A stretch of 33,922 nt of DNA from a virus (taxonomy: Duplodnaviria; Heunggongvirae; Uroviricota; Caudoviricetes). Shown one piece after another: positions 2,373-29,402 of the stretch; position 1 is the first letter of the stretch, and each line of letters opens with the position of its first letter. The stretch is from IMG/VR virus record IMGVR_UViG_2630968639_000008; one strand, 5' to 3'. The notes below the pieces were generated by a model. That model searched no databases and was not told the DNA's origin. It worked only from the letters and a program-made list of their open reading frames with translations. Both the position numbers and the translations under genes were made by a program.

Positions 2373-3067
2373 TGCGAAAGTTTGTTAATGGAAAGGAAGC
2401 CGCCAAAGTTGCCGACGTTATTGCGAAACTTACAGCCGCTCAGGCATTTGCTGCATTTATCCTTCGTGATATCGGACGTCGGCTGATCATATTCATCCGC
2501 AACTGCCGGACCGTGATAACCGCACTCATCACCGCGATAGGTCCAGGTGCAGGTGTTGGCCAGCATGATACGTCCCGGAAAAACAGCGCCATCCGTTTCC
2601 GTCGGCGTGGACAGTACAAAGGAGGCACTCACCGCGCTCAGTTCGCTGCACTGCTCGATGCGCCAGCGGCTGATCACCTCCTGCTCCGGATCGGCGTCAC
2701 TGTTTCCGTTGATGAAGCTCACCGCATCCAGAAAACGGGCGTAAACCTTACGCCGGACCACCGTTCCGCCGACCAGACTCTGCAGATCTTCCGCCATCCC
2801 GGTGACCATACCGTACAGGTTAGAAACCGTCAGCGTGGGGCGCGTACTGGTGCCTTTGCCATTCAGTTCAAAACCACTCCCCTGAATGGGATACGGCTGA
2901 TACTGTCGCCGCTGCCAGGTGACCGGCTCACCTTTTTCGTTCTGCTCATTACAGAAAAAATAACGTTCTCCACCGACCTCTGTCAGGTCGATTTCCCAGA
3001 GCACCACGCTGGCCGACTGCTCCGCACGGGTGCATTCATTCAGTGTTTCCTGCCGGATATCCTGCAT
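2369..3067 (-). CDS. L: Tail tip assembly protein L (C-terminal Cys cluster)
   Basis: 232-aa ORF ending in CSKCLSGCKFRNN; length and order match lambda L. Confidence 0.9.
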   Translation of the reverse strand: MQDIRQETLNECTRAEQSASVVLWEIDLTEVGGERYFFCNEQNEKGEPVTWQRRQYQPYPIQGSGFELNGKGTSTRPTLTVSNLYGMVTGMAEDLQSLVGGTVVRRKVYARFLDAVSFINGNSDADPEQEVISRWRIEQCSELSAVSASFVLSTPTETDGAVFPGRIMLANTCTWTYRGDECGYHGPAVADEYDQPTSDITKDKCSKCLSGCKFRNNVGNFGGFLSINKLSQ

Positions 3068-3396
3068 CAGTTCACCACCTGTTCAAACTCTGCGCTGAAC
3101 TCAACACGCAGCATACTGACCCGCGACGACCATTTTGCGCAGGTCACCTTTATCTGCCTGTAACCATAAGGCGGCGTCCACAGAAAGGCCTTCCAGCCCC
3201 CGTGCTCAGCCAGAAACAACTCCAGCGCCGTGGCCTCCTCACGGGAGGCAGACAGCGTCACGCTGTACGTTTTCAGGTCAGCGTTCAGCCCGGCAGGCGC
3301 ACGCTGGGAATAGCCATCACCAAAGCGCACCTTTCTTACAGAAGGGGCCGAAGCCACATCCATACCGGGTTTCACTTTCCAGCGGAAGGTTTTCAT
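3067..3396 (-). CDS. M: Tail assembly protein M
   Basis: 109-aa ORF, same length and position as lambda M; 4-nt overlap with H. Confidence 0.9.
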   Translation of the reverse strand: MKTFRWKVKPGMDVASAPSVRKVRFGDGYSQRAPAGLNADLKTYSVTLSASREEATALELFLAEHGGWKAFLWTPPYGYRQIKVTCAKWSSRVSMLRVEFSAEFEQVVN

Positions 3397-5972
3397 CGTC
3401 CACCTCCGGAGAACAGGCCACCATCACGCATCTGTGTCTGAATTTCATCACGGGCACCCTTGCGGGCCATGTCATACACTGCCTTCATCATCTGTGGACC
3501 TGGCAGACCATTCGTACCGTCGTTCTGAATCACCACGTGATTGTTCTGATTAAAATTAATGCCTTCAGCCCGCCGCATCTGCGCCGGACTTCCGGCACCG
3601 CCCACATAACCACCTTCCGCATAGCCCCGCATCAGGCGGTACAGGTTGCCGACACCAATCCGGCTGGTTGCCTCCTTCGTGAAGACAAATTCACCACGGT
3701 GAACAATCCCCGCTGGCTCATATTTGCCGCCGGTTCCCGTAAATCCCCCGGTCGCAAAATGGAATTTCGCCGCAGCTGCCTGAATGGCTGTACCGCCTGA
3801 CGCGGATGCGCCGCCACCAACAGCCCCGCCAATGGCGCTGCCGATACTCCCGACAATCCCCACCATTGCCTGCTTAAGCAGAATTTCTGTCATCATGGAC
3901 AGCACGGAACGGGTGAAGCTGCGCCAGTTCTGCTCACTGCCGGTCAGCATCGCCGCCATATTCTGTGCAATACCATCAAAGGTCTGCGTGGCAGCACTTT
4001 TAACCTGCGACATACTGTCCGTGGCGCTCTCTTCCCACTCACTCCAGCCGGACTTCAGGCCTGCCATCCAGCTCCCGCGAAGCTGGTCTTCAGCCGCCCA
4101 GGTCTTTTTCTGCTCTGACATGACGTTATTCAGCGCCAGCGGATTATCGCCATACTGTTCCTTCAGGCGCTGTTCCGTGGCTTCCCGTTCTGCCTGCCGG
4201 TCAGTCAGCCCCCGGCTTTTCGCATCAATGGCGGCCCGTTTTGCCCGTTGCTGCTGTGCGAATTTATCCGCCTGCTGCGCCAGCGCGTTCAGGCGCTCCT
4301 GATACGTAACCTTGTCGCCAAGTGCAGCCAGCTGGCGTTTGTACTCCAGCGTCTCATCTTTATGCGCCAGCAGGGATTTCTCCTGTGCAGACAGCTGGCG
4401 ACGTTGCGCCGCCTCCTCCAGTACCGCGAACTGACTCTCCGCCTTCCACAAATCCCGGAGCTGCTGGCTGATTTTCTCATTTGCTCCGGCATGCCTCTCC
4501 AGCGTCCGGAGTTCAGCCTGAAGCGTCAGCAGGGCAGCATGAGCACTGTCTTCCTGACGATCGCCCGCAGACACCTTCACGCCGGACTGTTTCGGCTTTT
4601 TCAGCGTCGCTTCATAATCCTTTTTCGCTGCCGCCATCAGCGTGTTGTAATCTGCCTGCAGGATTTTTCCGTCTTTCAGTGCCTTGTTCAGTTCTTCCTG
4701 ACGGGCGGTATATTTCTCCAGCGGAGTCTGCAGACGTTCGTAAGCCTTCTGCGCCTCTTCGGTATATTTCAGCCGTGATGCCTCAGACTCAGCACGATCT
4801 TTTGCTGCCATCTCACTGGCCTTTTCAAGATCTGCCTGCAATGTGGCGGCTGAAAGACCAAGTTGCGCATTCGCCCTGTCCTCCCATGCGCCACGGAGAT
4901 TGGCAAGAAATGCTGAGGTTTTACCACGCCGGTGGCTCCGGCTCTGATACCACTGCCATTTCTTGTCCGCTTCATCAAAAGCCTTTTCTGCTTTCTCCAG
5001 CATTTCCCGGGCAGTGTCCGGGCGACCAATATCCAGCACCGAATCCCACATGGATTTAAATGCCCGTGCTGTCTTATCTGCCCAGGTCTCCAGCGTGCCC
5101 ATGTTATCTTTCAGGCGGCGGGTCTGGTCATCAAACCCTTTCCTTGCGGCCTCGTTCGCCGCCTGCAATGCCCCGGCTTCATCGCCGGAACGCTGCAACT
5201 GAGCAACATACGCAATCTGCTCCGCTGTCACGTTATGGAACTGGCGCGCCATCGCCGTCAGCCCCGACGTCGGGTCTGTGGTCAGCTTCCCGAAGGCTTC
5301 AGCAACCTTGTCCACCTCCACGCCCGATGCAGAGGAGAAACGCGCCACACTCTGGCTGATCGCCTCAAACTGCTCACCACCACGCACACCGGCATTCACC
5401 AGCGCCGTCAGAGACTCGCTGGTCTGGTTAAACGTCAGCCCTGCCGCCTGCCCGGCTCTGGACAGGACCAGCATACGATCTGCCGTCAGTCCCGCCTGAT
5501 TGCCGGAAAGGACCAGCGTTTTGTTGAAATCGGACAGGGTTGAGTTGCCCTGATACCAGGCATACGCCAGCGCACCGGTCGCCACCGCCAGCGAGGTGGC
5601 CCCCACCATCGGCAGGGTGATCGCACCGGCAAGCCCCCTGAACATGGGGATCATCCCGCCGAAGGAGTCCTTAACCTGACCACCCTGTTGCAGCAGGATC
5701 AGCCACGGACTTTGCCCGCCTGCAAGCTGCGTGGCCACGTCGGTGAACTGTGCAGGCAGCATACGCATGGCGGCTTTATACTGCCCGACGGAAATCCCCG
5801 CTTTCTGTGCAGCCAGCGCCTGTCGGCTCAGCGACTGTTCAACGACTGCCGCTGTTTTTTTCGCATCACTTTCCGTACCGGAAAAATGACGCCTGACTCT
5901 GGCCATCTGCTCGTCAAATCTGGCCGCATCCAGACTCAAATCAACGACCAGATCGCCTACCGGTTCAGCCAT
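3393..5972 (-). CDS. H: Tail tape measure protein H
   Basis: 859-aa ORF, coiled-coil rich with a Gly-rich C-terminal region; N- and C-terminal stretches match recalled lambda H. Numerous antisense ORFs inside it are treated as spurious. Confidence 0.9.
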   Translation of the reverse strand: MAEPVGDLVVDLSLDAARFDEQMARVRRHFSGTESDAKKTAAVVEQSLSRQALAAQKAGISVGQYKAAMRMLPAQFTDVATQLAGGQSPWLILLQQGGQVKDSFGGMIPMFRGLAGAITLPMVGATSLAVATGALAYAWYQGNSTLSDFNKTLVLSGNQAGLTADRMLVLSRAGQAAGLTFNQTSESLTALVNAGVRGGEQFEAISQSVARFSSASGVEVDKVAEAFGKLTTDPTSGLTAMARQFHNVTAEQIAYVAQLQRSGDEAGALQAANEAARKGFDDQTRRLKDNMGTLETWADKTARAFKSMWDSVLDIGRPDTAREMLEKAEKAFDEADKKWQWYQSRSHRRGKTSAFLANLRGAWEDRANAQLGLSAATLQADLEKASEMAAKDRAESEASRLKYTEEAQKAYERLQTPLEKYTARQEELNKALKDGKILQADYNTLMAAAKKDYEATLKKPKQSGVKVSAGDRQEDSAHAALLTLQAELRTLERHAGANEKISQQLRDLWKAESQFAVLEEAAQRRQLSAQEKSLLAHKDETLEYKRQLAALGDKVTYQERLNALAQQADKFAQQQRAKRAAIDAKSRGLTDRQAEREATEQRLKEQYGDNPLALNNVMSEQKKTWAAEDQLRGSWMAGLKSGWSEWEESATDSMSQVKSAATQTFDGIAQNMAAMLTGSEQNWRSFTRSVLSMMTEILLKQAMVGIVGSIGSAIGGAVGGGASASGGTAIQAAAAKFHFATGGFTGTGGKYEPAGIVHRGEFVFTKEATSRIGVGNLYRLMRGYAEGGYVGGAGSPAQMRRAEGINFNQNNHVVIQNDGTNGLPGPQMMKAVYDMARKGARDEIQTQMRDGGLFSGGGR

Positions 5973-20623: not shown

Positions 20624-21007
20624 TTAATTAGAGTTATTAACAACGATATCCATCTCTAACCGGATATCTAATGCCATTAACATCCCTTCAATTATGCCCT
20701 CAGCCTTCTGTAACCTTTTCCCGATATAACCATCAGAGCAGCAATGCTTACCTGCCAGTGACATGAATGTCATACCGACTACATAATAATCTACTAATAA
20801 ATCGTGCAAATCGCTGTTGTTCTTTTTCAGACGGGCCATGCACCCGCAAATGATCATCGCGTCATCGTCACAACATTGCGGGCGAGATTTTACTTTTGAA
20901 GTAATTAATCCCTTAAAACCGGCGGCAATGGACGACCAGGTCACATCTTCATGATTATTAGCCGCCCACGCTCCCCAACGCTCAAGAACCATCTGAATAT
21001 CACGCAT
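20624..21007 (-). CDS. Q: Late-gene antiterminator Q (phage 82 / DLP12 QuuD-like)
   Basis: Trimmed to ATG 21007 ([21 protein letters not shown]...), 127 aa, Cys-rich ([27 protein letters not shown]); upstream of the lysis cassette on the same strand. Confidence 0.7.
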
Positions 21008-21229
21008 CAACTTACTCCACAAAAATCAGACCAGAACGCCAATTACAAGCAAAAATCAATAAAACAGTATTAGTTGATTGTTATCTCTGACTTCATACTC
21101 CTGCTCCTGTCAGGGTTTTGGCGTAATTCCTCAGTATTCGGTAATCGGTCAAAACAGAACTGGGGAAACGATATAAGCGCAGGCGCATCCAGCGGTGGCG
21201 AAGAAGTTCTGCCATATAAAACTCAAACA

Positions 21230-22649: not shown

Positions 22650-22718
22650 AATTATGACAAGTTGATTATTGAAAATCAAAAGTCATTTAAACAATAATGA
22701 TACCCCGCAAGAGATTTC

Positions 22719-23120
22719 TTATTTTAACTCATAGATCAGACAGTCAACGATTTCTAAACCATTTACCATAGAATTAGAAACGCGAACTTTACCATCGTTG
22801 ACTCTAGCAAATCCTTTTAACATTTTATAAATAAAAGCTGAATCCCCCTTAGCCTCAATTGCTTCTAATGGTATCGGCTTATACTTTTTTGATATGCTAT
22901 TTCTATTTATCTCACTGATTTTTCTATATATTTCTGCCGGTCCACGTTCTGAGAAGTCACTGATAACTAAAATATATCTCCAAGATAGATCTGGGTAATA
23001 AAACCACATTGCAGCATCAATAGTTAAATTCTGTAACTTGAGTTTTTTTAATAAAAATTGACCTGAGAATTCCATATCTTTTGTCAACTCTCTGCCGATT
23101 ACCAGTGTGCTTTTACCCAT
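22719..23120 (-). CDS. Hypothetical protein, downstream partner of the HEPN-like gene (overlapping, translationally coupled)
   Basis: 133-aa ORF; ATG at 23120 with GGAG 9 nt upstream; overlaps the upstream gene by 22 nt; AT-rich codon usage; no motif recognised. Confidence 0.5.
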   Translation of the reverse strand: MGKSTLVIGRELTKDMEFSGQFLLKKLKLQNLTIDAAMWFYYPDLSWRYILVISDFSERGPAEIYRKISEINRNSISKKYKPIPLEAIEAKGDSAFIYKMLKGFARVNDGKVRVSNSMVNGLEIVDCLIYELK

Positions 23121-23515
23121 TTCAAAACTCCAGAATTTTGGTCACCTACAGCATCAAACAATTGTTCGGCCATAGCTTTACTTATGTTATTGTCGTATCT
23201 AAATTGCTCGCTCCAGTCTTTAACGACCGACCAGTTAATCTCCAACGAAACATCATTTTTTGCGTCAGCAATCAAAATTTGATGTAAGTTGGCAATTTTG
23301 AGAAGTTGCGACAAATCATGAGTATATGAATCATTTACGACTTTTTTGTTTGGAAACTCATGTTGTAAAAATGACTTGGCAATACAGGCCTTCAATGCAC
23401 ATTCAACTGCATACCCACAAAGATAATATGCACCATGAAAAAAGCCATGATCAAGCAAGCATTTGGCCTCATTAAGCCTAGTGTCAGATAATGCTTCAAG
23501 GTCGTTTTTATTCAT
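23099..23515 (-). CDS. HEPN-domain-like protein (candidate toxin or abortive-infection nuclease)
   Basis: 138-aa ORF; helical pattern GAYYLCGYAVECALKACIAKSF, THDLSQLL and C-terminal RYDNN resemble HEPN four-helix-bundle proteins; AT-rich; TATAAT sits immediately upstream of the ATG. Confidence 0.55.
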   Translation of the reverse strand: MNKNDLEALSDTRLNEAKCLLDHGFFHGAYYLCGYAVECALKACIAKSFLQHEFPNKKVVNDSYTHDLSQLLKIANLHQILIADAKNDVSLEINWSVVKDWSEQFRYDNNISKAMAEQLFDAVGDQNSGVLKWVKAHW

Positions 23516-24620: not shown

Positions 24621-24794
24621 TTAAACAAACGTTCGCCAGACCTTACCATCAATGACCAGGATTCCTGCACGCGCCATTTTAGCTGCTGCCTGATTTATGC
24701 AGGTTACTGTCACACCTGTTGCCGCAGCAACGTCCTGCGCACAGAAGCTCTTATGCGTCCCCAGGTAATAAATAATTGCCTCTTTGCCCGTCAT
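24621..24794 (-). pseudogene. ren: Truncated ren-like gene (57 codons)
   Basis: ATG at 24794 overlapping the P stop; hand translation MTGKEAIIYYLGTHKSFCAQDVAAATGVTVTCINQAAAKMARAGILVIDGKVWRTFV then stop; matches the N-terminal part of lambda Ren as I recall it (full length about 96 aa). Below the track length cutoff. Confidence 0.5.
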
Positions 24795-25492
24795 ACACTT
24801 GCTCCTTTCAGCCCAAACTTAGCTTTGATTTCTGCGATCTTCGCCAGAGCCTGTGCACGATTTAGAGGTCTACCGCCCATGACAGGAAGCTGTTTTACTG
24901 GTTCAGGTATCGCCTCACCACGGTTAATTCGCGCGGTCATACAGGACAGTTCATCGGCAGCCTTGCGCCGTAATTCCGCATCAGGAAGCGCATTGGCCCG
25001 CATGTTCTGGTACAGGTTGGTAACCAGCCAGTAGTGCGCGTTTGATTTCCATGGATAAGACTCTGCGTCCGGATACAGGCCACGCTTCCGGCAATACTCG
25101 TAAACCATATCAACCAGCTCGCTGGCGTTTGGCAGCCCGGCGGTAACGGATGCTTCTTCCCGGCACCAGGCAACAAACTGCCCGGGTGATGGCAGGAATG
25201 GTCGATTCTGCCGACGGGCTACGCGCATTCCTGCGTTAACCTGTTCCATTGTGGTGATCCCGTTTTCCCGGAAAGCCAGAACCCACTGGCGGCGGATTTC
25301 GTTCAGTTCGTTCTGATCCCGGTTAGCCAGGCTCGCAGGGAAAGTTGCCAGTAACTGGCTGAACACACCGTTGATGATCTGCGCTACCTGCTGTACCTGC
25401 GGCTTTTCGTCGTACTGTTCCGGCATATTGTTGGCGATCCGGCGCATCTGCTCACGGTCAAAGTTAACCATCTGTGCGGCGATGTTTTTCAT
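24791..25492 (-). CDS. P: Replication protein P (DnaB helicase loader)
   Basis: 233-aa ORF matching lambda P in length and sequence. Confidence 0.92.
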   Translation of the reverse strand: MKNIAAQMVNFDREQMRRIANNMPEQYDEKPQVQQVAQIINGVFSQLLATFPASLANRDQNELNEIRRQWVLAFRENGITTMEQVNAGMRVARRQNRPFLPSPGQFVAWCREEASVTAGLPNASELVDMVYEYCRKRGLYPDAESYPWKSNAHYWLVTNLYQNMRANALPDAELRRKAADELSCMTARINRGEAIPEPVKQLPVMGGRPLNRAQALAKIAEIKAKFGLKGASV

Positions 25493-26418
25493 AAATCCAC
25501 CCCGTAAATCCAGTCAGTGTTCGTCAGGTCGAGTTTTGGTTTGCCGGCTGTCACGCCAGCCTGTTGCTTGTTTCGGTTGATTTCGAGCTGGGTCCACTTG
25601 TCGCGGAGTTTGGCCGGACTCAGCACGTTACCGGACCAGAAGTTGTCCTGGCATGCCCAGCGGAACAGCACGCACATGTCGCGGTGGTTACGTCCGTCAC
25701 GTTCACGCATCAGGCGGATATCGTTAGCCCACCCTGCAAAATTCGGTTTTCTGGCTGATGGCGCGATGGTCTTCACCATGTCAAACATCCACTCTGCGGC
25801 GGTCAGGTCTTCTGCTGTCCCCCACTTGCTGCCACTCTGAATTGCAGCATCCGGTTTCACCACAGGAAGGTCGTTTTCTGGCTGGTCAGAGGATTCGCCA
25901 GAATTCTCGGACGAAAAAGGTTTTATATTGTCTTTTGTTAGTTTGTCTTTTGTGTTTACCTGATTCGGGTAAACGCCTTTACCTGATTTGGGTAAACTTT
26001 TCTTACCTGATTCAGGTAAATTTACCTCTTTCAGGTAAACTTTATTTTTCTTACCTGATTCGGGTAATGTTGACCATTCACTGACCACATTATTAATGCC
26101 GATATTTCGCCCGCTCTGAATAAGAATCCCACGCTTTACCAGAACGCTTTTTGCAGCAGAACACTTGTGCGGCAATATCCCGGTCAATTCGGAAAGTTGC
26201 TCGTTGCTCACCCAATCCAGTCTTTTATTAAAGCCATATGTTTTGCGCATGACAGCCAGGAAGACCAGAAGCTGGTGCTGTGTTAATCCGGCCAGCATCA
26301 CAGCTTCCAGCAACTCATTTGCAATGCGCGTATAACCATCGTCGAGATCTGCCACGCGCCGCTCCTTTTGTGCCACATCCGGCACTGGAAAATTGAATAT
26401 CTCAGCAGTGTTTGCCAT
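25489..26418 (-). CDS. O: Replication initiator O (lambda-like C-terminal domain, divergent N-terminal origin-binding domain)
   Basis: Trimmed to ATG 26418 (GGAGG upstream): MANTAEIFNF...; C-terminal ...KWGTAEDLTAAEWMFDMVKTIAPSARKPNFAGWANDIRLMRERDG...TNTDWIYGVDL matches lambda O; iterons lie inside the coding region. Confidence 0.85.
   Translation of the reverse strand: MANTAEIFNFPVPDVAQKERRVADLDDGYTRIANELLEAVMLAGLTQHQLLVFLAVMRKTYGFNKRLDWVSNEQLSELTGILPHKCSAAKSVLVKRGILIQSGRNIGINNVVSEWSTLPESGKKNKVYLKEVNLPESGKKSLPKSGKGVYPNQVNTKDKLTKDNIKPFSSENSGESSDQPENDLPVVKPDAAIQSGSKWGTAEDLTAAEWMFDMVKTIAPSARKPNFAGWANDIRLMRERDGRNHRDMCVLFRWACQDNFWSGNVLSPAKLRDKWTQLEINRNKQQAGVTAGKPKLDLTNTDWIYGVDL
25956..26067. repeat. 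Origin of replication: five 17-bp palindromic iterons (TTACC-N7-GGTAA) with adjacent AT-rich region 25921-25955
   Basis: Iterons at 25956-25972, 25979-25995, 26003-26019, 26022-26038, 26051-26067, inside O; an AT-rich tract follows in the O reading direction, as in ori-lambda. Confidence 0.75.
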
Positions 26419-26504
26419 AATTCCTCCCGCAATGAGTGTGTTACGATTTGCACCTGAAAGTCGGTTCTGTTCGCGCAGACCGGCTTTCGCCATTTCCGAA
26501 CCTG

Positions 26505-27050
26505 TCATATTGCCCCCAGCATGGTGGTGACCATCGCCATCAGTGGACCAGCCAAATCCGGGTCCACACGAAACATCGACACAATGCCTTCACTCATCTC
26601 CTTCAGTTTCTGGTGGCGTGGTGCGTTGAGAATGACAGCCTGTTTTGCCTCACTGAGTTCCTTTTCCATTTCAGCCAGCCGAGCCATGTAGCTATCCTGC
26701 TCAACCAGGTGGCCGCGATATTCCAGCGGTAGTACCGCCAGAATTGCCGGGGTCAGTTCACGCACGTTATTTCGGTATTTTTCAGAATCGAATTTGTTAT
26801 CGAGGAAGCGGAACAGCTTCTGGCGTGCACGGCTGACATCATCAGGGAAATCGATGGTGCCGCCGCCCTGCTCCCGATACTCATTCACAATGAGTGCGGC
26901 AACAACATCCTGATTATCTGCAGCCGACCAGGCGCGAACGGCATCACGGATTTTTTCGTGGCCTGGCGCCTGTTTTGTTTGAGAACGATTTATCACCGCA
27001 GTCGGGCTAAATCCGCTAGTCTGTTGGTATGTAAGTGGTTGCATAGTCAT
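26505..27050 (-). CDS. Hypothetical protein in the cII position (possibly YdaT-family)
   Basis: 181-aa ORF between cro and O on the early-right strand; not lambda CII-like in size or sequence; family assignment is a tentative recollection. Confidence 0.4.
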   Translation of the reverse strand: MTMQPLTYQQTSGFSPTAVINRSQTKQAPGHEKIRDAVRAWSAADNQDVVAALIVNEYREQGGGTIDFPDDVSRARQKLFRFLDNKFDSEKYRNNVRELTPAILAVLPLEYRGHLVEQDSYMARLAEMEKELSEAKQAVILNAPRHQKLKEMSEGIVSMFRVDPDLAGPLMAMVTTMLGAI

Positions 27051-27074
27051 TGCCTTATCAGTTAACGCCGCAGT

Positions 27075-27302
27075 TTAGGCGGCAGAATTACTCGCGTTAA
27101 ACAATGGTGCGAGGTCGGGACGAATATCTGCTGGTTTAATCTTTCCACCAGTGGCTGAGACAATTTTCATTACATAGCGGGCATCAATTCCGCCACCGTG
27201 TAGCCAACGCCAAACTGTGGGTTGGGCTACACCGCATAGATCTGCCAGTCGTTTTTGACTACCTGTAATACTGATTGCGAGTTGAATGGTTTGATTTGTC
27301 AT
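27075..27302 (-). CDS. cro: Cro-like HTH repressor (YdaS/Cro family)
   Basis: 75 aa from ATG 27302; HTH region QKRLADLCGVAQPTVWRWL; divergent from cI across the operator region. Confidence 0.7.
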   Translation of the reverse strand: MTNQTIQLAISITGSQKRLADLCGVAQPTVWRWLHGGGIDARYVMKIVSATGGKIKPADIRPDLAPLFNASNSAA

Positions 27303-27412
27303 TATCAATTCCTATTGGTATTGCAATGAATAAATAATAGCAATGCGTATTAACCCAAGCAATAGCAAAACGTGTTTTGACCATCAATACGCAAGCGTAT
27401 AAATTAAAACTT
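27303..27412. promoter_or_regulatory. Right operator/promoter region (OR): three related 14-bp operator sites with candidate pR and pRM
   Basis: Sites ATAGCAATGCGTAT (27337-27350), ATAGCAAAACGTGT (27362-27375), ATACGCAAGCGTAT (27387-27400, perfect palindrome), spaced 25 bp. Candidate pR on minus strand: -35 TTGCTT (27362..27357), 17-bp spacer, -10 TATTAT (27339..27334). Candidate pRM on plus strand: -35 TTGACC (27377-27382), -10 TAAATT (27400-27405), placing the start near the cI ATG. Confidence 0.6.
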
Positions 27413-28105
27413 ATGAAAAAAGAAACTCTTGCTGATCGCTTAAACCTAGCGATGGAACAATCTGGAATGTCTCAAGGCGCTCTTGCAAAGGCGTCTGGCG
27501 TAGCTCAACCCACAATCTGGAGACTGACAAGCGGCAACGCGCGCGGCTCAACAAAAATTGTTGAAATAGCTAATGCATTGGGTGTTCGAACAGAATGGCT
27601 CTCATCAGGCATAGGCCCGATGAGAAATGACGGTCAACAATCAGGGAAGCCTGCTGTCAGCCATTCAAAATACTTCAAGATTGACGTTCTTGATATAGAA
27701 GTCAGTGCCGGACCGGGTGTCATCAACCGTGAGTTTGTGGAAGTTCTACGCTCGGTTGAGTACTCGTTTGACGATGCTCGTCACATGTTCGATGGCAGGA
27801 AGGCGGAAAATATCCGCATTATTAACGTGCGCGGTGACAGCATGTCAGGGACGATCGAACCAGGTGACCTGCTGTTCGTTGATATCACTGTTAAATCTTT
27901 CGACGGTGATGGCATCTATGCGTTTCTGTACGACGACACTGCCCATGTAAAACGTCTTCAAATGATGAAGGATAAGCTGCTGGTTATCTCTGATAACAAG
28001 AGCTACTCGCCGTGGGACCCGATCGAGAAAGACGAGATGAACCGGGTGTTCATATTCGGTAAGGTCATTGGAAGCATGCCGCAGACGTACAGGAAGCATG
28101 GTTAA
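27413..28105 (+). CDS. cI: CI-type prophage repressor (HTH plus S24 LexA-like autopeptidase domain)
   Basis: 230 aa from ATG 27413; N-terminal HTH (MSQGALAKASGVAQPTIWRL); Ala-Gly cleavage site (EVSAGPGV), Ser in RGDSMSG and Lys in HVKRLQ; divergent from cro. Confidence 0.85.
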   Translation: MKKETLADRLNLAMEQSGMSQGALAKASGVAQPTIWRLTSGNARGSTKIVEIANALGVRTEWLSSGIGPMRNDGQQSGKPAVSHSKYFKIDVLDIEVSAGPGVINREFVEVLRSVEYSFDDARHMFDGRKAENIRIINVRGDSMSGTIEPGDLLFVDITVKSFDGDGIYAFLYDDTAHVKRLQMMKDKLLVISDNKSYSPWDPIEKDEMNRVFIFGKVIGSMPQTYRKHG

Positions 28106-28334: not shown

Positions 28335-28715
28335 ATGAGAAAAATCCTAATCGCTGCCATGATGGCATCTCTATTGGCTGGGTGTGCTTCTTCAGGCAAC
28401 CAGCAACTCAAAAATGAAACTGAAACTAGTGTCCAGTCTAAACTTCAGGAAGGTAAAACAACCAAGAATGAGGTTAAATCTTACTTTGGTTCTCCTGATG
28501 CTGTTTCATATACTGACAGTGGAAACGAGATCTGGAAGTACGCCTTTGCAAAAGTAAAAGTTAATGGCACCACTTTTATTCCATTCTATGGATTATTCCA
28601 TAATGGAACGAACGGTACGAAAAAAGAACTTACTATTCTTTTTAACGATGACACGATTAAGAAATACACAATGTCAGAAACCCAAATAAACTCGAAATCA
28701 GGTTGGGCTGACTGA
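28335..28715 (+). CDS. Hypothetical lipoprotein downstream of cI (rex-position moron)
   Basis: 126 aa; signal peptide and lipobox (LLAGC); AT-rich; same strand as cI; followed by a terminator; mid-region resembles a BamE/SmpA_OmlA-like fold only loosely. Confidence 0.6.
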   Translation: MRKILIAAMMASLLAGCASSGNQQLKNETETSVQSKLQEGKTTKNEVKSYFGSPDAVSYTDSGNEIWKYAFAKVKVNGTTFIPFYGLFHNGTNGTKKELTILFNDDTIKKYTMSETQINSKSGWAD

Positions 28716-28723
28716 TAATCATA

Positions 28724-28750
28724 CCCGGCAACCGCGCCGGGTTTTCTTTT
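28724..28750 (+). terminator. Rho-independent terminator after the lipoprotein gene
   Basis: Stem CCCGGC / GCCGGG (28724-28729, 28736-28741) followed by TTTTCTTTT. Confidence 0.65.
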
Positions 28751-28832: not shown

Positions 28833-28918
28833 ATTCTTTTTGCTATCAAACATTTAATATCAAAACACATCAACTAATAGCAATAAGTATTGATATCACC
28901 AATAGCAATAGCTATTAT
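28833..28918. promoter_or_regulatory. Left operator/promoter region (OL) with candidate pL
   Basis: Operator-like sites ATAGCAATAAGTAT (28877-28890) and ATAGCAATAGCTAT (28902-28915), 25 bp apart, plus an inverted copy ATAGCAAAAAGAAT (minus, 28846..28833). Candidate pL: -35 TTGATA (28890-28895), 17-bp spacer, -10 TATTAT (28913-28918), overlapping the operators. Confidence 0.55.
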
Positions 28919-29024
28919 CACCATATCGCAACAACACAACGATACGGCAACCACCTGATTCACCGTTGCGATGACCGCTTAGATCCGCAGCTTGAATTTC
29001 AGCTGGCTTCGGGGAGTGCGAGGG

Positions 29025-29402
29025 ATGAAACGGACGCGTGAACGTCGGTGTGACCAGCTGAAATCAACTCAACATTTCATACCTCAGTCGCTTCAACGAG
29101 GCGGCTTAGTTATGACAACCGGCGGCCATCCACCGCCTGAATACGCGCAGAAGTCTCTATATGTTCAGCAGCCCAGCTTACGGGCAGGAGTTTTTATGGT
29201 TCATCAACATTACGGAACACAGACCGTTAATCGCGGCGCGGTCATGCCAGGAATGCTGGTCAAACACAAAGATGGTACCTGGACTGCATCAGCTAATTTA
29301 CGCGGACGGCTTTATCTGCATCGCGGCATCGAGCGCACTTATACCCGTGATTTGCTCGTGGAAGTTTTTCTCGACGGACGCGGTAACGGCCTGAATCACT
29401 AA
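29025..29402 (+). CDS. Hypothetical first protein of the early-left operon (N position; not clearly N-like)
   Basis: The track ORF begins at TTG 28992; first ATG is 29025 (MKRTRERRCDQ...), Arg-rich N-terminus but the rest does not resemble N; the stop is immediately upstream of the gam leader. Confidence 0.35.
   Translation: MKRTRERRCDQLKSTQHFIPQSLQRGGLVMTTGGHPPPEYAQKSLYVQQPSLRAGVFMVHQHYGTQTVNRGAVMPGMLVKHKDGTWTASANLRGRLYLHRGIERTYTRDLLVEVFLDGRGNGLNH

Follow-up and report, generated by a model that had tools for sequence, protein, structure and literature searches.

The DNA analyzed here (the window) is a stretch of 33,922 nucleotides from the viral record IMGVR_UViG_2630968639_000008 (Caudoviricetes), a lambda-like prophage lying in reversed orientation. 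Our subject is the gap between its repressor gene cI and the divergent cro gene, which measures 110 bp (27303-27412) given a cro ATG at 27302 on the minus strand and a cI ATG at 27413 on the plus strand. This gap holds three related, near-palindromic 14-bp sites, here called operators 1, 2, and 3, and we consider it very probable that it is the right operator region (OR) of a lambda-like immunity switch. The sites, starting at 27337, 27362, and 27387, can be read directly from the sequence, and a repeat search returned a single three-copy family with start-to-start spacings of 25 and 25 bp (27336, 27361, and 27386). Their consensus over 14 bp, ATA(G/C)-N6-(G/C)TAT, is two-fold symmetric with ATAGCAA as the preferred half-site; the right half of operator 2 (GTGT) is imperfect yet conserved.

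A second cluster lies downstream of cI, at the left operator region (OL) around the promoter pL. Six matches to ATAGCAANNCGTAT at no more than two mismatches occur in the window, and all of them are located either at OR (27337 and 27362) or at OL (28833, 28877, 28883, and 28902), the latter within a stretch of about 85 bp. When a position-weight matrix built from five sites was scanned over both strands of the window (68 kb of strand), its best two matches outside the training set were 28833 (minus, 15.1 bits) and 27308 (minus, 13.7 bits), each of which adjoins an operator cluster. The arrangement of the two clusters is also alike. OL1 and OL2 are 25 bp apart, as at OR, and pR with operators 1 and 2 exactly mirrors pL with OL1 and OL2; in each case, 3 bp of the -10 element fall within the proximal site and 1 bp of the -35 element falls within the next. 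For comparison, 93 related loci were collected, and 11 nonredundant sequences from Escherichia, Salmonella, Klebsiella, Kluyvera, Citrobacter, and Raoultella were compared. An OL cluster comprising pL and two sites 25 bp apart is present in all relatives, at 1.4 to 2.9 kb from the cI start, and the distance varies over this range because the cargo between cI and OL differs. In the Klebsiella relatives, a register overlapping OL2 (28883-28896) is the better match. OL1 is inverted in the Salmonella, Klebsiella, and Kluyvera relatives with respect to E. coli, which argues for symmetric recognition by a dimer and against recognition of the sites as direct (asymmetric) repeats, a reading that was rejected for this reason.

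These results bear out much of the initial annotation of this DNA, which had read three near-palindromic 14-bp sites at 25-bp spacing in the gap and a recurrence of their half-site at OL, where it is indeed found at 28877 and 28902 around pL; the motif search through the window and related prophages places the sites at OR and OL and finds them conserved in relatives. The proposal of three operators stands insofar as the three sites are real, but three is probably an undercount, given a fourth, weaker conserved site in the cro leader. The description of the region as compact does not hold, as the corresponding gap is 100 bp in lambda and 97 bp in the CP-933P prophage (PMC8630535). Table 1 lists the features of the switch and of its surroundings.

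Table 1. Features at and around the cro-cI gap (positions in the window)
Feature	Position	Strand	Sequence or match	Remarks
Operator 1 (OR1 equivalent)	27337-27350		ATAGCAATGCGTAT	In pR spacer and -10; 12/14 columns invariant (11 sequences), only central positions 9-10 vary
Operator 2 (OR2 equivalent)	27362-27375		ATAGCAAAACGTGT	Abuts pR -35, 1 bp from pRM -35; 13/14 columns invariant
Operator 3 (OR3 equivalent)	27387-27400		ATACGCAAGCGTAT	Within pRM spacer, 1-bp overlap of pRM -10; 13/14 columns invariant
Candidate fourth operator	27308-27321		ATTCCTATTGGTAT (reverse complement ATACCAATAGGAAT)	+7 to +20 of pR transcript, over cro Shine-Dalgarno
pR -35	27362-27357	minus	TTGCTT	1-bp overlap of operator 2; only TTG conserved in relatives
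pR -10	27339-27334	minus	TATTAT	Extended -10 TG at 27342-27341; 3-bp overlap of operator 1; conserved in relatives
pRM -35	27377-27382	plus	TTGACC	Promoter scan; invariant in 11 relatives
pRM -10	27400-27405	plus	TAAATT	Promoter scan; 17 bp from -35; invariant in relatives
cro 5' leader (predicted)	27303-27327	minus		Shine-Dalgarno AGGA at 27310-27313, 7 nt before ATG
cI repressor, 230 aa	27413-28105	plus	HTH_3, E 1.8e-6; Peptidase_S24, E 1.3e-18 (Pfam)	
cro, 75 aa	27075-27302	minus	PF15943, E 9.6e-15	YdaS-family helix-turn-helix; recognition helix GVAQPTVWRWLHG
Distal OL site	28833-28846		ATTCTTTTTGCTAT (reverse complement ATAGCAAAAAGAAT)	Upstream of OL2 by 44 bp; all relatives conserve it as ATTCnTTTnGCTAT
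Weak OL3-position site	28857-28870		ATATCAAAACACAT	Degenerate here; good operator in Klebsiella and Kluyvera relatives
OL2	28877-28890		ATAGCAATAAGTAT	Abuts pL -35
OL1	28902-28915		ATAGCAATAGCTAT	In pL spacer and -10; 3-bp overlap, as for OR1/pR
pL	28890-28918	plus	TTGATA-17-TATTAT	Promoter scan, 10/12; conserved in relatives
BamE-like lipoprotein gene	28335-28715	plus	PHROG 3135	Between cI and OL
YdaT-family "CII," 181 aa	26505-27050	minus	PF06254, E 2.4e-29; PDB 8bt1, E 2e-4	
O	25489-26508	minus		
P	24791-25492	minus		
Q antiterminator	20624-21022	minus		

Conservation of the sites and covariation with the DNA-binding domain

Nowhere in the intergenic region is conservation higher than in the three sites. 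Across the 11 sequences from six genera, 38 of the 42 operator columns are invariant versus 19 of the 40 other intergenic columns (Fisher p = 2.8e-5), and most of these 19 belong to the promoter hexamers. By comparison, among 30 third-codon positions at the beginning of cI, only 7 are invariant, and the spacer between operators 1 and 2 retains 3 of its 11 positions at a constant length. Variation inside operator 1 and OL1 is restricted to central positions. Some exceptions are found among E. coli prophages from IMG/VR that carry an identical cI (loci L080, the L055 group, L087, L060, L088, and L047). The spacing of operators 1 and 2 is 26 bp in L080, and single-base variants occur in operator 2 (ATAGCCAAACGTGT, ATAGTAAAACGTGT, and ATAGCAAAACGCGT), in operator 3 (ATACGCGAGCGTAT), and in the pRM -35 element (TTGACT). 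They may represent mutated operators of prophages undergoing decay. When 83 E. coli loci were compared without gaps, one haplotype with a 1-bp insertion confounded the result, and we therefore use the common polymorphisms alone, in a qualitative way.

The module formed by the operators and the CI N-terminal domain is present in 719 of 5,426 complete E. coli genomes (13%), nearly always as a single copy. It is likewise found in P22-like phages of Salmonella, among them BTP1 from epidemic ST313, and in prophages of Klebsiella, Kluyvera, Citrobacter, and Raoultella.

The proteins encoded on either side of the gap are of the kinds expected for such a switch. CI combines a helix-turn-helix with an S24 domain that has the motifs for self-cleavage, namely, a single Ala-Gly (Ala99-Gly100), Ser143 within GDSM, and Lys180. 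The best PDB matches of its N-terminal domain (residues 6 to 67, about 30% identity) are 434 repressor structures (1sq8, 2r63, and 1per; E 1.6e-5 to 6.8e-5). Cro is 32% identical to this CI domain (BLASTP, E 4e-9), and the two share a near-identical block, GVAQPTIWR in CI and GVAQPTVWR in Cro, that spans the turn and the start of helix 3. This block, GVAQPT(I/V)WR, is kept in every relative with these operators.

We assign the sites to CI and Cro because they covary with the DNA-binding domain in two natural domain swaps, evidence that we regard as decisive. In one of these, from Kluyvera georgiana (locus L013), the N-terminal domain of CI is 67/70 identical to that encoded in the window and the C-terminal domain is unrelated (54/130, 41%); its operators are the same. 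The converse holds for a Klebsiella grimontii prophage (locus L012), in which the C-terminal domain is 121/132 identical and the N-terminal domain differs (37/69, 54%). Here, the recognition helices of both CI and Cro differ, and so do the operators, which are 14-bp sites of the AAAAC/ACAAC-N4-GTTGT type. In both loci, cI lies at about 3001-3700. Judged from these sequences, operator specificity appears to travel with the CI N-terminal domain.

Promoters and the start of cI

The promoter towards cro, pR, is read from the sequence as TTGCTT-17-TGcTATTAT (27362-27334, minus strand). It overlaps operators 1 and 2, as the initial annotation had it for a sigma70 promoter at this place. Its -35 hexamer matches the consensus at 3/6. 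Relatives carry TTGCTA, TTGTTA, TTGCCT, or TTGATT at this -35 position. In the opposite direction, pRM (TTGACC-17-TAAATT, 27377-27405) encloses operator 3. The initial annotation took pRM to be the weaker promoter, a ranking that consensus scores of 9/12 for pRM versus 8/12 plus TG for pR do not favor. It was right in placing the pRM -10 just before the cI ATG, the A of which is the eighth base downstream of TAAATT.

From these elements, the pR transcript is predicted to start at the A at about 27327, the seventh base from the -10 and an A preceded by C, which would give cro a leader of 25 nt. The pRM transcript most likely starts at the A of the cI ATG, which is preceded by TT, or no more than one or two bases away from it. 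No Shine-Dalgarno sequence is seen ahead of the cI ATG. The interval from TAAATT to ATG is fixed at 7 nt in length and free in sequence (1/7 positions invariant in the 11 cross-genus sequences), the pyrimidine-pyrimidine-A(TG) context at the cI start is conserved, and the K. grimontii locus has the same geometry of TAAATT followed by ATG. In the related YdaS/YdaT-type switch of CP-933P, the repressor mRNA paaR2 was shown to be leaderless by 5' RACE and N-terminal sequencing (PMC8630535). The cI mRNA is probably leaderless because of this geometry, the conserved pyrimidine-pyrimidine-ATG, the noncoding character of the substitutions just upstream, and the CP-933P precedent. Owen et al. 2020 (PMC7067206) report one transcription start site for cI-bstA of the BTP1 prophage and a high level of CI expression in lysogens.

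The proposed switch and its alternatives

From the layout of sites and promoters, we infer binding of CI to both clusters, and with it an order of occupancy, cooperativity, and looping between OR and OL. In the lysogen, CI dimers, with their 434-like helix-turn-helix, would sit on operator 1 in the pR spacer and -10 and on operator 2 at the pR -35, shutting off pR, and CI on OL1 and OL2, the mirror-image pair some 1.5 kb away, would shut off pL. The repressor gene itself would be expressed from pRM as a leaderless mRNA, and with operator 3 positioned in the pRM spacer, an excess of CI would feed back to repress cI. From operator 2, which lies 1 bp away from the pRM -35, CI may in addition stimulate pRM, which is the least certain step. 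Upon DNA damage, RecA would stimulate self-cleavage of CI at Ala99-Gly100 by Ser143 and Lys180. Upon induction, pR would then produce Cro, which would bind to the sites of CI and turn off pRM.

Several points weigh against this interpretation. A literature search for binding, footprint, or transcript-mapping data for phages with these operators found none, and a search for the 14-mers and for ATAGCAA in combination with operator or repressor terms returned no relevant report. The raw motif count is just modestly above that of shuffled sequences, which contained a mean of 1.95 matches to ATAGCAANNCGTAT and reached at least six in 2 of 100 shuffles; the case rests on clustering and conservation. 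With its -35 at 3/6, pR falls below the threshold of the promoter scan, which was set at 4/6 or more matches in each hexamer. In public records, PhiR30_1 (L001 3378) and BTP1 (L005 2546) have cI start at the in-frame TTG at 27377, which adds 12 residues and contradicts a leaderless ATG start. Finally, activation of pRM by CI is doubtful, since the -35 of pRM is near consensus, operator 2 is centered at about -44.5 versus -42 in lambda, and helix 2 (SQGALAKASG) lacks acidic residues. Lambda CI activates via acidic residues of helix 2, as known from positive-control mutants.

That the repeats are not repressor operators at all, and instead represent incidental promoter-linked sequence or sites for a host protein or the YdaT-type CII, is highly improbable. 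Parts of the sites do coincide with promoter elements (TGcTAT of the extended pR -10, and TAT of the -10 elements of pRM and pL). However, promoter spacers are normally not conserved, yet operators 1 and 3 fill such spacers and stay nearly invariant, and the motif shifts with the CI and Cro recognition helices in the K. grimontii locus and stays with the N-terminal domain in that of K. georgiana. The CP-933P YdaT site (TTGATTN6AATCAA), the only one determined by experiment, is different (PMC9986795). A rival of more substance accepts the three operators and adds to them. The weaker conserved site in the cro leader may also bind CI and/or Cro and impose an extra block downstream of the pR start, with OL likewise comprising four sites; we put this forward tentatively, as a reading with a real though minority share of our confidence. 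It is the second-best nontraining match of the weight matrix in the window, at the 13.7 bits given above, and in the 11 relatives its ATTCC and GTAT are invariant around five variable central bases. The cro ribosome-binding site accounts for the ATTCC part of this conservation; for the GTAT, the Shine-Dalgarno sequence offers no explanation. The distal OL site is conserved and carries the same unusual GAAT half-site, and four repeats are present in the 97-bp region of the CP-933P switch (PMC8630535). At the equivalent place (L012:2901-2914), the K. grimontii locus carries ACAACCTCCGTAGT, which is of that locus's own operator type, although this argument is post hoc. Against a fourth operator stand the imperfection of one half-site and the distance to operator 1, which is 29 bp in the window and 28 bp in the Kluyvera and Citrobacter relatives, neither constant nor in the 25-bp register.

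Two further alternatives concern pRM and the beginning of cI. The operators may be as described and cI not leaderless, owing to translation from the TTG at 27377 or to an upstream transcription start that yields a leadered mRNA. The frame between 27377 and 27413 is open in all relatives, the resulting 242-amino-acid open reading frame (ORF) is the one annotated in PhiR30_1 and BTP1, and an alternative -10, TATAAA (27398-27403), would give a leader of 3 to 4 nt. Set against this, the TATAAA leaves just a 15-bp spacer from TTGACC, and the TTG lacks a Shine-Dalgarno sequence and makes up the first half of the pRM -35 hexamer, which is invariant. The seven bases before the ATG vary nonconservatively (KLKL, KFEI, KLNI, and KLKT when translated), in contrast to the 86 to 100% conserved N-terminal domain that follows. 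Moreover, the alignment with the 434 repressor begins at residue 6 of the ATG-started CI, so that helix 1 is complete without the extension, and in the Perceval record the curators picked the ATG. A cI mRNA with a leader, or a TTG start, is thus improbable, and because this TTG belongs to the invariant pRM -35, we think that its use as a start codon is an annotation error. A bolder alternative joins the doubt about activation to the additional sites. In such a design, four sites at each end would form a purely repressive loop, and pRM, with its TTGACC, would be intrinsically strong and independent of activation by the repressor, possibly as a typical property of switches with a YdaS-type Cro. 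We consider this unlikely; if true, the switch would depart from lambda logic in two linked ways, through its extra sites and through an activation-independent pRM.

Related switches and prophage context

Compared with lambda, the interpretation as a lambda-type OR is supported by a shared architecture, and the layout nearly coincides with the annotated OR of lambda. In both, cI and cro are divergent, and the operators are regularly spaced (23 and 24 bp in lambda versus 25 and 25 bp here), with one operator lying in the spacer and -10 of pR, a second at the -35 elements of the two promoters, and a third in pRM. Both have a second cluster at pL, a repressor made of a helix-turn-helix and an S24 self-cleaving domain, and a cI ATG right after the pRM -10. 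The sites, however, are 14 bp long rather than the 17 bp of lambda and unrelated in sequence, and operator 2 lies about 2.5 bp further from pRM. The -35 of lambda pRM is weak, in contrast to the near-consensus TTGACC found here. The window furthermore has a YdaS-family Cro, a YdaT-family CII, and probably the extra site in the cro leader, and no N-like antiterminator gene was found between pL and the recombination genes (28919-29402).

Phage 434 provides the nearest solved structure for the CI N-terminal domain, and its operators are likewise 14 bp long, with conserved outer quartets; here too, the outer 4 bp are conserved and the central 6 bp vary. In 434, the recognition helices of repressor and Cro are near-identical. 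The bases and residues involved are not the same, however, with ATA(G/C) in place of the ACAA of ACAA-N6-TTGT and QPTIWR in place of QQSIEQ. The switch described here is a different immunity from 434.

A closer counterpart of Cro and CII is found in the PaaR2/YdaS/YdaT switch of CP-933P from E. coli O157:H7 (Jurenas et al. 2021, PMC8630535; Prolic-Kalinsek et al. 2023, PMC9986795). It shares the YdaS-family Cro, the YdaT-family CII, a short intergenic region, a similar repressor N terminus (MQKKE versus MKKET here), and the recurrence of operators at the pL equivalent (PMC8630535). In contrast, PaaR2 is a protein of about 15 kDa followed by a toxin-antitoxin pair, whereas here a 230-residue S24 repressor is followed by a lipoprotein gene, and the CP-933P repeats are four 18-bp palindromes of the GTTTAGTAA type. 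The immunity is thus not that of CP-933P either. An inverted repeat, TTGATTTGTCATTATCAA (27291-27308), has the cro start codon at its center and departs from the YdaT operator of CP-933P at one position; an exact match to that operator occurs at 22662-22679, between ninB and a moron gene. As a real YdaT site, TTGATTTGTCATTATCAA was rejected because the repeat is missing in YdaT-bearing Kluyvera and Citrobacter relatives and the YdaT of the window is only distantly related to that of CP-933P.

Salmonella P22-like phages of the ST104/BTP1/SE1/ST160 type have a matching repressor, with CI 86% identical overall, 63/70 residues shared in the N-terminal domain, and the recognition helix unchanged. 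ST104 has the same operators 2 and 3 as the window, a single central base of operator 3 is changed in BTP1, and the differences in operator 1 are confined to positions 9 and 10; pRM and the distance from its -10 to the ATG are the same. These phages differ in having a P22-like podovirus virion, a C1/CII of the lambda/P22 type instead of YdaT, and a different cro leader. From the sequences, we predict that they share immunity with the prophage in the window. ST104 had been set apart as having its own repressor type, with no experimental specificity (Villafane et al. 2008, PMC2629481). Its record likens both cI and cro to those of HK022, and the note "similar to HK022 cI" reflects only distant homology. 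HK022 CI is a lambda-like repressor that is 40% identical over its full length, and its cooperative binding and OL-OR looping are attributed to Carlson and Little 1993 in PMC8053113, which cites that work. HK022 immunity itself was rejected for the switch described here on account of this 40% identity and the lack of ATAGCAA-type sites in the HK022 immunity region.

The switch is a widespread, unstudied example of the well-known lambda-type system, of which the site sequence is newly written down here. Conceptually, it offers nothing new relative to the lambda paradigm; the two natural swaps illustrate that specificity follows the N-terminal domain. In practical terms, the operator consensus predicts which prophages share immunity, corrects the annotated start codon of the repressor in some public records, and provides a further orthogonal repressor/operator pair for synthetic circuits.

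The surroundings of the switch are those of a lambda-like prophage, with nin-region genes between Q and P, and kil, gam, bet, and exo beyond the OL cluster. The 1.2 kb around the switch match prophages in the chromosomes of E. coli STEC409 and ETEC1746 at 100% identity and are 95 to 98% identical to the sequenced phages PhiR30_1, Perceval, 4A7, Lambda_4C10, D2, 1W, and 3W. Between cI and OL, the slot of the lipoprotein gene, which is followed on its 3' side by a terminator-like hairpin (28723-28742), is occupied in relatives by bstA (BTP1), a ParA-like gene (a Klebsiella phage), or other cargo. The first ORF past pL (29025-29402) matches Kil over residues 49 to 125. The presence of put RNA of the HK022 type or of nut sites downstream of pL and pR was considered and dismissed, as the leaders showed no HK022 similarity and no element common to both, and a search of the whole window against Rfam families gave zero matches. 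Between cro and the YdaT-type cII, a hairpin, GCCGC-N7-GCGGC (27067-27083), overlaps the cro stop codon; it is placed like the nutR/tR1 region of lambda, and its loop is unlike boxB. In the nin region, an ORF with a HEPN domain (23099-23515, minus strand) overlaps a 133-amino-acid ORF without a Pfam match (22719-23120, minus strand), and the two may constitute a toxin-antitoxin or defense moron.

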